Shown here: positions 21,556 through 24,500 of the stretch, in pieces
How the letters are laid out: each line of letters starts with the position of its first letter
How positions within the stretch are numbered: position 1 is the stretch's first letter
From: a virus
Taxonomy: Duplodnaviria > Heunggongvirae > Uroviricota > Caudoviricetes
Strand: one strand, 5' to 3'
Virus record (IMG/VR): IMGVR_UViG_3300006204_000001
DNA: 64,000 bases
Notes under the pieces: model-generated
The model's database searches: none
What the model was told of the DNA's origin: nothing
Seen by the model: the letters and a program-made list of their open reading frames with translations, nothing else
Made by a program: the position numbers and the translations under genes

Positions 21556-24500
21556 TTCTACGTTCCTCCTCTAATAAAGACTCATCGAACTGTCTATATT
21601 TTAATCGTGGGTCTTCTTCAATAATTATTTCCATTGGATTATTCATCTCGCCATACATGGATATACTATTGTCTTTATAATGATATAATTTATCAAGCAT
21701 CGAATTATAATCATCATTATTGTCGCATCCAATTCTAAGTTCTTCTCTATCTGGATCATCATATTCCTCTAATTGATTTAAAGGAACCTCATCCAAATAT
21801 TCATTAATCTTAAAGTGCATTTTATTCTCATATAATGAATCATCAAAATACAATGAATCCATTTTACAATATGGAGATAAACTACCACTTTGTCCCAAAT
21901 ATATTTATATACTATTATAATAGTATATCGAGTATAAAACTCTGCTCATATTCTCATATGACGTTTAGACTATATCTTTCATCTTATAATCTTTTACCAA
22001 TTATAATCTACTCTACCACTTCATCTATTATATAGATTACTCTACTTACCATAATACCGTTTATTATTCGTATATTATAGAATCTTCGATAGTCGTTGAA
22101 CTTGTTATAAACTTTTCTTATTTTTATCCTAATTAAAAAGTCTTTTTTTAGCTGCGTGGTTGACTCTATTCTATACCTTTTTACTATACCTATTAGAATA
22201 ATTCTATTATAAAAAGTCTAATAGCCATTATTATATTACTATAATAATTTAGTAGTATAGACTTAACAAGTTATTCCCGCAATTAAATAATTGCATGCCC
22301 CTTACGATATCAATGAAAGGGTCTGAACTTGAACTCTCAGCAACATCACAAAATCCTAGCATACTGGGATGTAATGCTCTTTGTCTTATAGATATTCTTC
22401 GGTTATCATTATTTCCGAGTGAATTCAAATATCTTAACTCTATATCTCTATAGATGTTGAGACTATATCTTTATTTCATATGAAAAGATACTCCATTTCC
22501 ATAATAAATTATGTACTCTACTAACTATTATTGCTAATATCAATTTAACAATTGATATAGGTATTTCTCCTATATCATAGCTTTTCGATAGTCGTTGAAC
22601 TTTTAATAATTATTAATAAATTAATTGGTTTTGGTTACGGAGGATTTACCACCTTTCTTTTTTTATTATTTTTATTTTTTATTAATAATTAATTTTATTA
22701 GCTGCGGATTATCTCTTTATTTAACCTTTTTACTATACTCTAGTTAATTACTCTAGACCACTACTATATTTCTATAAATAGTTTAGTAGTTAAATATACA
22801 GACAAGATATTCCCGCAATTAAAAGTATGCCACCCAATTCATATTAGGCGTAATATTTATATAACATCTCTTAATATTATACATGGTATAATTATTTTTA
22901 CATAATTTCCCATCCCTATATTTCTATAGGATACTAGACTATATCTTTCCTATATTACCTTTTACCGATAATACAAGATCTTTTCATTTCTATAATCTAA
23001 TTATATACTATACTTACTATTGATATAGTATTTCACTTATACCATAGCATTTTCTATAGTCGTTGAAGTTTCTTTTATAAAATAATTTATATTAGAATTA
23101 TTTATAAAATCTTACCTGCTTATGATTGTCCAATCTTTAATGTTTTTACCATCTGATAGTCGTTATACTATCTGCTTACATATTATATTACTATAATATA
23201 GCGGTAATTAAAGCTCTAAGGAATTTCCAGCAATTAATAAAGAGAAGGCTCAAATTATATATTAATTTATTTAATATTACATAAAATATTATTTTAATAG
23301 ATAATTTATGTTCACCTTTCTTAGTATATTTGACCATATTAACCATATCCATATCATTATTTGTTTCAGCATATCTTAAAACACCTGAAGAATATAATTT
23401 TGTAATGAAAATATCTTCCAATTATCTTATCTTCATTTCTCAATGAACGTTGAGACTATATCTTTATAGAATTTATTATATTAATCTATATCTTTCATTT
23501 CCACTATTATGTGTACTCTACTAGCTTATATTAGTTTTCGATAGTCGTTGAAGTTTTAATTGAATTATTATAATTCAATTTATTTACCTGCGATGATTAT
23601 CTCTATTCTATACCTTTTTACTATACCTTGAGATATTACCTCTTGCCACTATTATATTTCTATAAATAGTTTAGTAGTATAGACCTAACAAGAACTCCCC
23701 GCAATTATAAAAGAAACCCCAAAGATTCTAGGGAATTTAAACATGCTAATGAAATCTTTAATACCTGCTTTAGGTCCTAATGATACAATACGATTAATTT
23801 TTTTAGATATTTCTGCTGTAACAAATGATGCAATATACTCCCTACATCTTAATCTTTTATTTATCATGGATAGATTATCTTTTTGCCATAAATCGAAATA
23901 ATTTTCTACGATCCATCGTAATAAATAATAGATATTCTGTTTATCGTAATCATTAATTTTTAATTCTTTACGCGTTACTTCATCTAATAATCTATTGAAG
24001 AATATATGTTGATATTGACCTCTACTAATTGTATTCTTTCCACCAACTATAATCATCCATTCTTCCCAATCATCAATTTTTTCAAATGGAATTTTTGTTT
24101 CTTCAAATAATTTTATTAGACATCCTACTATTGATTTTATATATATCTCTTTTTCAAATATTTCCTTATTTACTGCTACTATTATATCAGATTTCTTTCC
24201 ACAATCAAATCTAATAATATGATCTGATTTTGGATATGTTTTATCTTTTGATTCTATTCTTATAAATTTATTAACTTCTAAGAAATTCAATGTCTTAGTA
24301 ATAGTTAAATGAGAATAAATAAGTAATATATTAATAGCATTTTTGAATATTTGAATTGTATATGTTGGTATAGTATGTACATTACCATCCATATCGGTAT
24401 AATCATCATTAGTAGTCTTTACACATATAGGCATTAATGATTTTACTGTTACAGCACTGAATGATGGATATAACATTTTATCTACCATCTGATAGATGAG

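Follow-up and report, generated by a model that had tools for sequence, protein, structure and literature searches.

Two adjacent group I introns flanking a predicted one-codon exon in an RNA polymerase β subunit gene of an AR9-like jumbo phage

Group I introns interrupt a number of phage genes, including td, nrdB and sunY of T4 and orf142 of Twort. An RNA polymerase (RNAP) gene of PhiPA3 carries an intron with the HNH endonuclease gp210 (PMC11620839), and the Jug phages have about 18 group I introns per genome (PMC12880540). Extremely short exons have been described in organelles. In the mitochondrial cox1 gene of Placozoa, a micro-exon of 1 base pair (bp) lies between two group IB introns, with intermediates seen by RNA sequencing (RNA-seq) (Osigus et al. 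2017, PMC5436844). Exons of 3 bp are reported for mitochondrial genes of Peltigera (Xavier & Miao 2012, as cited in PMC12308204), and a "mini-exon" of 1 nucleotide (nt) separates two group II introns in the rnl gene of Ophiostoma (PMC12308204). Fungal mitochondria also contain side-by-side introns and twintrons, for example cox3-640, which has two group IA modules in tandem (PMC12308204). Here we analyzed, by sequence and comparative evidence only, an RNAP gene on the minus strand of IMG/VR virus record IMGVR_UViG_3300006204_000001, of which we studied a stretch of 64,000 nt (the window). The gene encodes the N-terminal half of a β subunit, and two of its group I introns appear to enclose an exon that consists of a single proline codon.

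As in the intron-bearing genes of T4, Twort, PhiPA3 and the Jug phages, several group I introns lie in conserved motifs of an essential gene and splicing would restore the reading frame across them. In those phages, however, the exons between introns are of ordinary length, whereas one exon of the window would be one codon long. Like placozoan cox1, the locus appears to have a tiny exon that was isolated when a second group I intron inserted beside an existing one. The placozoan exon supplies part of a conserved codon and was first missed by annotation, and the same holds for the phage exon. The two differ in that the placozoan exon is mitochondrial, flanked by IB introns, 1 nt long and documented by RNA-seq, whereas the exon described here lies in a phage gene between IA-like introns without open reading frames (ORFs), comprises a whole codon (3 nt) and is predicted from sequence. 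In addition, the guide of the downstream intron pairs with the terminal bases of the upstream intron in the window, unlike in placozoan cox1. The Peltigera exons, as far as the citing article describes them, and the Ophiostoma mini-exon are likewise very short exons between adjacent self-splicing introns, and Ophiostoma relatives with just one of the two introns offer the same comparative logic as is used here. Both are from fungal organelles, and the Ophiostoma introns belong to group II, in contrast to the group I introns of this phage. The cox3-640 modules stand in series with almost no spacer, as do the two introns here, but they are treated as one composite intron, whereas in the window a coding triplet lies between introns that each have their own 5' and 3' splice sites. 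In the full-text literature searched, the coverage of which is incomplete and no proof of absence, neither phages nor bacteria yielded an example of group I introns flanking a one-codon exon, or of a P1 helix common to a neighboring intron. The principle is already known from organelle micro-exons; what is new is the phage setting, the essential polymerase motif, the comparative series and the sharing of P1 with the terminal G of the upstream intron.

Our interpretation, to which we assign a probability of roughly 0.85, is that four ORF-less group I introns colonized the gene for the β N-terminal half, that two of them entered adjacent sites flanking one Pro codon, and that each of these removes itself to leave GGU-CCU-AAU. 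The gene (24893..21539, minus strand) is divided into five exons by four ORF-less group I introns, here called A to D. In the following list RF00028 is the general group I intron model, R1 is the covariance model described below, and L004 is an uninterrupted related locus.

Exon 1: 24893..23730, minus strand, 388 codons, ending AAA TTC CCT (KFP); identified by tblastn and PHROG 2943.
Intron A: 23729..23419, minus strand, 311 nt, ORF-less group I intron after CCU, with guide GGGG and P10 GAAGAU/AAUCUUU; identified by RF00028 and R1.
Exon 2: 23418..23314, minus strand, 35 codons (EDIFITKLY...KYTKKG), ending AAG AAA GGT; 72% identity to the L004 protein.
Intron B: 23313..22849, minus strand, 465 nt, ORF-less group I intron; identified by R1, the RF00028 3' core and helices traced by base.
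Exon 3: 22848..22846, minus strand, CCT, a predicted single Pro codon; placed by the G-P-N spacing of uninterrupted relatives.
Intron C: 22845..22426, minus strand, 420 nt, ORF-less group I intron; identified by R1, the RF00028 3' core and helices traced by base.
Exon 4: 22425..22318, minus strand, 36 codons (NSLGNNDNRRISIRQRALHPSMLGFCDVAESSSSDP), starting AAT TCA CTC and ending CCT.
Intron D: 22317..21896, minus strand, 422 nt, ORF-less group I intron after CCU, with guide GGGG; identified by R1 and an RF00028 3'-core match at 21979-21947.
Exon 5: 21895..21539, minus strand, 118 codons and a stop, starting GQSGSLSPYC.

Intron B ends in ATATTACG, with its last G at 22849, intron C starts with AATATGAATTGGG at 22845, and exon 4 starts with AATTCACTC at 22425. 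A preceding interpretation of this DNA, the sequence-only reading, had proposed the one-codon exon with exon 2 ending GGT, CCT at 22848-22846 and a terminal G at 22849, and all the coordinates and sequences it quoted are correct. When the five exons are joined they form a single open frame of 578 codons, which is 72% identical to the protein of the intron-less L004. Judging from its homologies, the gene belongs to an AR9-like, very AT-rich jumbo phage and is the counterpart of gp105 in AR9, where the non-virion RNAP β subunit has this protein as its N-terminal half. Exon 1 matches the corresponding genes of AR9, PBS1 and Staphylococcus jumbo phages at 27% identity over 90% of the query in tblastn, and it also matches PHROG 2943 ("polymerase"). 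For the L004 protein, AR9 gp105 is the sole match among solved structures (7S00 chain c, E 8e-40), with the G-P aligned. The homology runs along the protein and includes the G-P-(N/Q)-S and DPG motifs. No exon of the gene matched Pfam, and a near-identity DNA search of GenBank phages returned no match to the window.

The strongest guide to the exon comes from 33 related loci collected from IMG/VR and metagenomes, which fall into the following states at this site.

No intron: L004/5, L006, L011, L021, L023 and L027-32; GGN CCN and then AAY are contiguous, with CAA in place of AAY in L027-32.
Intron at the Gly-Pro boundary only: L007, L008/9, L010 (= L033), L013, L015/16 and L026, six distinct loci; the 3' exon begins with CCA, CCC or CCG.
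Intron displaced one base downstream: L012; GGG C, then the intron, then CC AAT.
Intron at the Pro-Asn boundary only: L014, L018 and L022; all have CCT, and the guide GGGACC pairs with GGUCCU.
Both introns: the window only.

In the relatives without an intron, the codons are GG(T/G/A) CC(T/G/C) AA(T/C), and in L027-32, at 61% identity, CAA places Gln where the others have Asn. Each of the two insertion sites is occupied singly in some relatives, so the window is a combination of both states. Group I introns almost always have a U·G pair at the 5' splice site, and CCT is found in all three loci with only the Pro-Asn intron because this rule demands it. Across the 33 loci, both phosphodiester bonds flanking one codon have been colonized by several intron lineages, and the window indicates how densely mobile group I introns can be packed within one conserved motif of an essential phage gene.

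The protein sequences agree with this pattern. The sequence-only reading had expected G-P-N-S in uninterrupted homologues, and KGPN[SA]LG is present in 19 of the 19 nearest uninterrupted proteins in a collection of 5.8 billion. It had given this column of the AR9 subunit as YTQSGPQS, and the sequence indeed reads RYTQSGPQS; AR9, LPJP1 and Machias all have G-P-Q-S. The proline of exon 3 aligns with the P of GPQS in AR9 gp105, and it is probably equivalent to P535 in LGPGG of the Escherichia coli β subunit, in fork loop 2. The claim that only a two-intron parse gives KKG-P-NSLG stood as well, since this parse keeps the frame, has U·G and a terminal G at both introns, and reproduces the G-P-N spacing of the relatives. 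Two separate cores flank CCT, and alignment with the uninterrupted homologues requires the exon. Many "proteins" of the family (P0016, P0026, P0098, P0145 and others) end at the Gly of KKG-P or within a few residues of it, or start just after it, which fits gene calls truncated by introns at a KKG-P hot spot in many uncultivated phages. ORF-based gene callers are blind to an exon of 3 nt and would report a fragmented β subunit, or one that lacks the conserved fork-loop proline.

The 888 nt between exons 2 and 4 had been described as two complete cores in series, and this description is borne out by R1 matches to both introns and by three conserved motifs, each of which occurs twice in the right order. 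AATTGC(T/G)GG (P3/P4) is found at 23235-23227 in intron B and at 22820-22812 in intron C. The J6/7-P7 motif TTCAACGACTAT is located at 23067-23056 and 22599-22588, and the J8/7-P7' motif AAGATATAGTC at 22947-22937 and 22471-22461, each with one copy in intron B and one in intron C. The J6/7-P7 and J8/7-P7' segments, which form the guanosine-binding site, are thereby present in both introns. R1 begins at the 5' splice site and extends to P6, and its modeled base pairs are those of P4-P5. It was trained on introns A and D, on intron E, which lies in another gene of the window, and on exon-1-site introns from two relatives, with B and C left out. The model was restricted to the 5' domain because whole-intron MAFFT alignments misplaced the J6/7 motif and the 3'-domain alignment was too ragged. 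In the 64-kb window R1 has exactly five matches, which are the training members A, D and E together with B (23258-23088, 54 bits, E 2e-9) and C (22843-22675, 92 bits, E 7e-18); introns A and D themselves score 161.7 and 134 bits.

Covariation supports the modeled helices. When 18 related introns are placed on R1, in an alignment fitted to the model, 95.6% of the cells are standard pairs, while control structures slid by 1-3 columns pair at just 29-45%. Two-sided (compensatory) changes occur in 23 of 35 pairs, a result reached by none of 500 shuffles. At one P4 pair, for example, most introns have G-C, whereas U-A is present in intron B and L010 and C-G in L008. Helices P3 to P9 follow in canonical order and include the P3/P7 pseudoknot. 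P3, P4, P7, P8 and P9 were traced by base in both B and C, P5 was traced by base in intron C only, and P6 is a predicted hairpin. Between P7 and J8/7, introns B and C have 109-117 nt that are predicted to form two or three hairpins before P3' and P8 are reached; these may be inserts of the P7.1/P7.2 type, and the introns would then resemble subgroup IA. Both introns are probably active.

Intron B would recognize its 5' splice site through P1 AAGGU/GCCUU (guide at 23249-23245), with U·G at the site. Its core contains P3 UCUUU/AAAGA, the P4 5' strand at 23233-23227, P7 GACUAU/AUAGUC with the 3' strand at 22942-22937, a P8 of 11 bp and a P9 with a GAAA loop. A closing helix of 6 bp, similar to P9.0, joins J7/9 (22936-22931) to 22856-22851 (UAGUAU/AUAUUA), and a single base separates it from the terminal G (omega-G) at 22849. 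The introns between Gly and Pro in L008/L009 can be aligned with intron B over its length, and those of L007 and L013 are alignable too. Both strands of the closing helix have diverged from these relatives, yet they remain complementary to each other, which looks like compensation and not decay. Scanning back from CCT by eye, ACG/CCT is the only in-frame, stop-free 3' splice site after a G before an in-frame TAA is reached. A site after GAGATG, which aligns with GATAAYTG at the intron ends of the relatives, was considered and rejected, since it would create an exon of 19 nt, a frameshift and an in-frame TAA. As a separate observation, ten genomes of Prevotella Lak megaphages contain unannotated sequence that is 82-83% identical, over ~120 nt, to the P3-P5 extension of intron B (nt 79-202 of the intron, window 23235-23112), and matches of 68-74% identity are present in PBS1-type Bacillus phages, in a crAss-like phage and in a phage contig from faeces. 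These matches point to an intron module that is common to very different gut phages.

In intron C, P1 is CGCCU/GGGUG, with the guide GGGUG at 22835-22831 and U·G at the 5' splice site. The target CGCCU consists of the C and terminal G at the 3' end of intron B, followed by the exon CCU. The pairing of CCU with GGG and the 6-bp P10 between AAUUCA of exon 4 and UGAAUU (22841-22836), both proposed in the sequence-only reading, were confirmed base by base, and P10 is perfect and contiguous with P1. Intron C also contains a P3 of 7 bp, a P4 of 7 bp (5' strand at 22818-22812), a P5 of 4 bp, a P7 of 6 bp (3' strand at 22466-22461) and a P9 with a GAGA loop, and its terminal G is at 22426.

The makeup of this P1 bears on the order of splicing. 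An exon of 3 nt is too short to fill P1, and therefore the helix of intron C is built from CCU and the last two bases of intron B. Its calculated duplex energy is -6.3 kcal/mol with intron B attached but -2.8 kcal/mol after removal of B, when the upstream sequence is GGUCCU. The P1 duplexes of introns A, D and B have energies of -5.3, -5.7 and -5.1 kcal/mol. According to our model, B and C would be independent ribozymes, each excised by the usual two transesterifications. Because the P1 of intron C includes the terminal C and G of intron B, intron C would bind its 5' splice site, and probably splice, while the 3' end of B is still attached. Exon ligation by intron B would follow, as the same terminal G must be free to enter the G-binding site of B itself. 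The mature mRNA is predicted to read GGU-CCU-AAU across the spliced junction AAGAAAGGT-CCT-AATTCACTC and to encode KKG-P-NSLG. More tentatively, and at somewhat less than even odds, the two ribozymes may be interlocked, with the guide of C adapted to the terminal C-G of B plus the exon; this would be an obligatorily ordered natural pathway of two ribozymes, and no micro-exon would have been described from a bacterial virus before. The locus offers a natural case in which the substrate helix of one intron holds the terminal G of its neighbor, and the order of, and interference between, adjacent ribozymes can be tested on a transcript of ~1.1 kb.

The sequences nearest to intron C are introns A and E and an orphan half-intron, all in the same window, and intron C groups with introns A and D in a family within this genome. 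These three introns are ORF-less paralogues, each of which lies directly after a Pro codon CCT (following KFP, GP and DP) and has a GGG(G) guide located 10-17 nt from the intron start. The shared pattern suggests that they may have spread within the gene by reverse splicing into sites ending in CCU and not by endonuclease homing. Intron E (window 1896-2236, plus strand) interrupts a β C-half-like gene at the motif RFGE-YE, between E and Y, with P1 UGAAU/GUUCA. Its 3' half is the closest to that of intron C, at 79% over 179 nt. Before the first exon of the same β C-half-like gene, at ~960-1185 on the plus strand, lies the 3' half of a group I intron, with J6/7-P7 at 1003-1014, J8/7 at 1140-1150, P9 and a 3' splice site. 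Upstream of it R1 finds no 5' domain, and an ORF of 87 codons occupies the opposite strand (929..666). The half-intron near 1003-1185 is a candidate for an orphan or a split intron.

Several observations weigh against our interpretation. RF00028 at its gathering score, which is an operational threshold of 50 bits and no structural definition, gives 0 matches in the whole window, and every intron of the window falls below this score. The sequence-only reading had expected two hits to a group I model; two separate matches were indeed obtained in the 888 nt at the E-value threshold, but both are partial, cover the 3' core (J8/7-P7'-P9) and fall below the gathering score (intron B, 22948-22916, 21.0 bits; intron C, 22473-22440, 24.2 bits). 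Intron A is aligned full-length at the E-value threshold and yet reaches just 33.7 bits (E 1.4e-5). The general model evidently gives too low a score to this AT-rich family, whose inserts are large. The P8 of intron C is short (~4 bp). The 3' tail of intron B (TATTACG) differs from GATAAYTG in its relatives, so that the 3' splice site rests on the frame, the terminal G and one predicted helix; no convincing P10 with CCUAAU and the following bases was found, with intron C present or removed, and given its lack the site would be set by the closing helix. A junction peptide of 49 residues matched the 5.8-billion-protein collection at 84% at best, in uninterrupted relatives, with none identical, and a search for the exact junction ACGCCTAATATGAATTGGG in IMG/VR gave no match. 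The window is an assembled contig. Finally, Pro occupies the column in 82 of 100 full-length representatives of the whole family. The proline had been called essential; its invariance in the near clade (19 of 19) agrees with this, the wider family less so, and a requirement for it is suggested by the near relatives.

In a first alternative, the 888 nt are removed as one unit, from the 5' site of B to the 3' site of C, so that Pro is skipped and KKG-NSLG is the main product or a sizeable by-product. The GGT-AAT joint would also be in frame, and no P10 fixes the 3' exon of intron B. In L010, moreover, the Pro codon that follows the intron between Gly and Pro is not preceded by a G, and splicing after a G there could stay in frame only by losing the Pro. 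On the other hand, none of the 100 representatives lacks the column and the near clade always has Pro in it, the 6-bp closing helix positions a terminal G that belongs to intron B itself, and the complete P1 and P10 of intron C define CCU as its 5' exon. We therefore consider skipping of the proline quite unlikely.

The short P8 of intron C and the altered 3' end of intron B would also be expected if one of the introns had become catalytically incompetent and the tandem were a dead end in a defective or non-viable genome. The foreign-looking start of the window and the orphan half-intron near 1003-1185 could be taken as further signs of decay. Yet every exon is open and has 72% identity to intact relatives, both introns retain all their core helices and junction motifs, the P8 of intron E also seems small by eye, and the changed J7/9 and 3' end of intron B are complementary to each other. 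Decay of the gene is thus an improbable explanation.

Misassembly is a third alternative, in which variants with the Gly-Pro intron and the Pro-Asn intron, or the repeated introns, were misjoined. The source resembles a metagenome-type assembly, the introns have motifs in common and both single-intron states exist in relatives. The repeats among the four introns are short and imperfect, however, and the longest near-exact one (33 nt at 97%) is too short to mislead a modern assembler. Introns B and C are clearly different sequences, and pairing of the guide of C with the terminal CG of B would be unexpected in a chimera. An artefact of this kind is very improbable. A twintron, in which C is nested within B, removal of C rebuilds B and CCT is intron sequence, is scarcely credible: the introns abut and the P1 of C uses the last two bases of B, but nothing of B lies downstream of C, the conserved exon 4 (NSLG...) starts directly after it, CCT is needed as the Pro codon and each site is singly occupied in relatives.

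Some relatives show unusual features at the same site. The intron of L010 (8369-8604; L033, 7369-7604) between Gly and Pro is a compact one of 236 nt, with a good P1 AAGGU/GCCUU and a 4-bp P10 CCGA/UCGG that points to CCG. It ends in GAATTTGCCTA directly before CCGAAC, so that A and not a terminal G precedes CCG, and joints at nearby G residues shift the frame or drop the Pro. An insertion of 4 nt, an error in the assembly or an unusual kind of 3' splice site could account for the missing G. In five relatives (L007:8226-8240, L013:8813-8830, L015:6610-6630, L026:4290-4305 and L012:7280-7295) the last exon base is C and not U. The Gly codon is GGC there, or it is GGG and the exon ends with the C of the Pro codon, and this C pairs with the guide G (AAGGGC/GCCCUU), so that C-G replaces U·G.

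The site of intron D has neighbors as well. L010 (8719-8926) and L014 (~8480-8687) contain a compact intron of ~208 nt one codon downstream of it, after DPG where intron D follows DP, with P1 CCUGGU/GCCAGG but lacking a P9 hairpin. The DPG motif, as well as the G-P-N site, is an intron hot spot with more than one insertion site. At the far end of the window (1-480), the first ~60 nt are GC-rich, unlike the rest, and 62-472 on the minus strand codes for a methionyl-tRNA-synthetase-like protein that breaks off abruptly after its N-terminal 136 residues. The start of the window may be a chimera at the contig end or a truncated phage or host gene.

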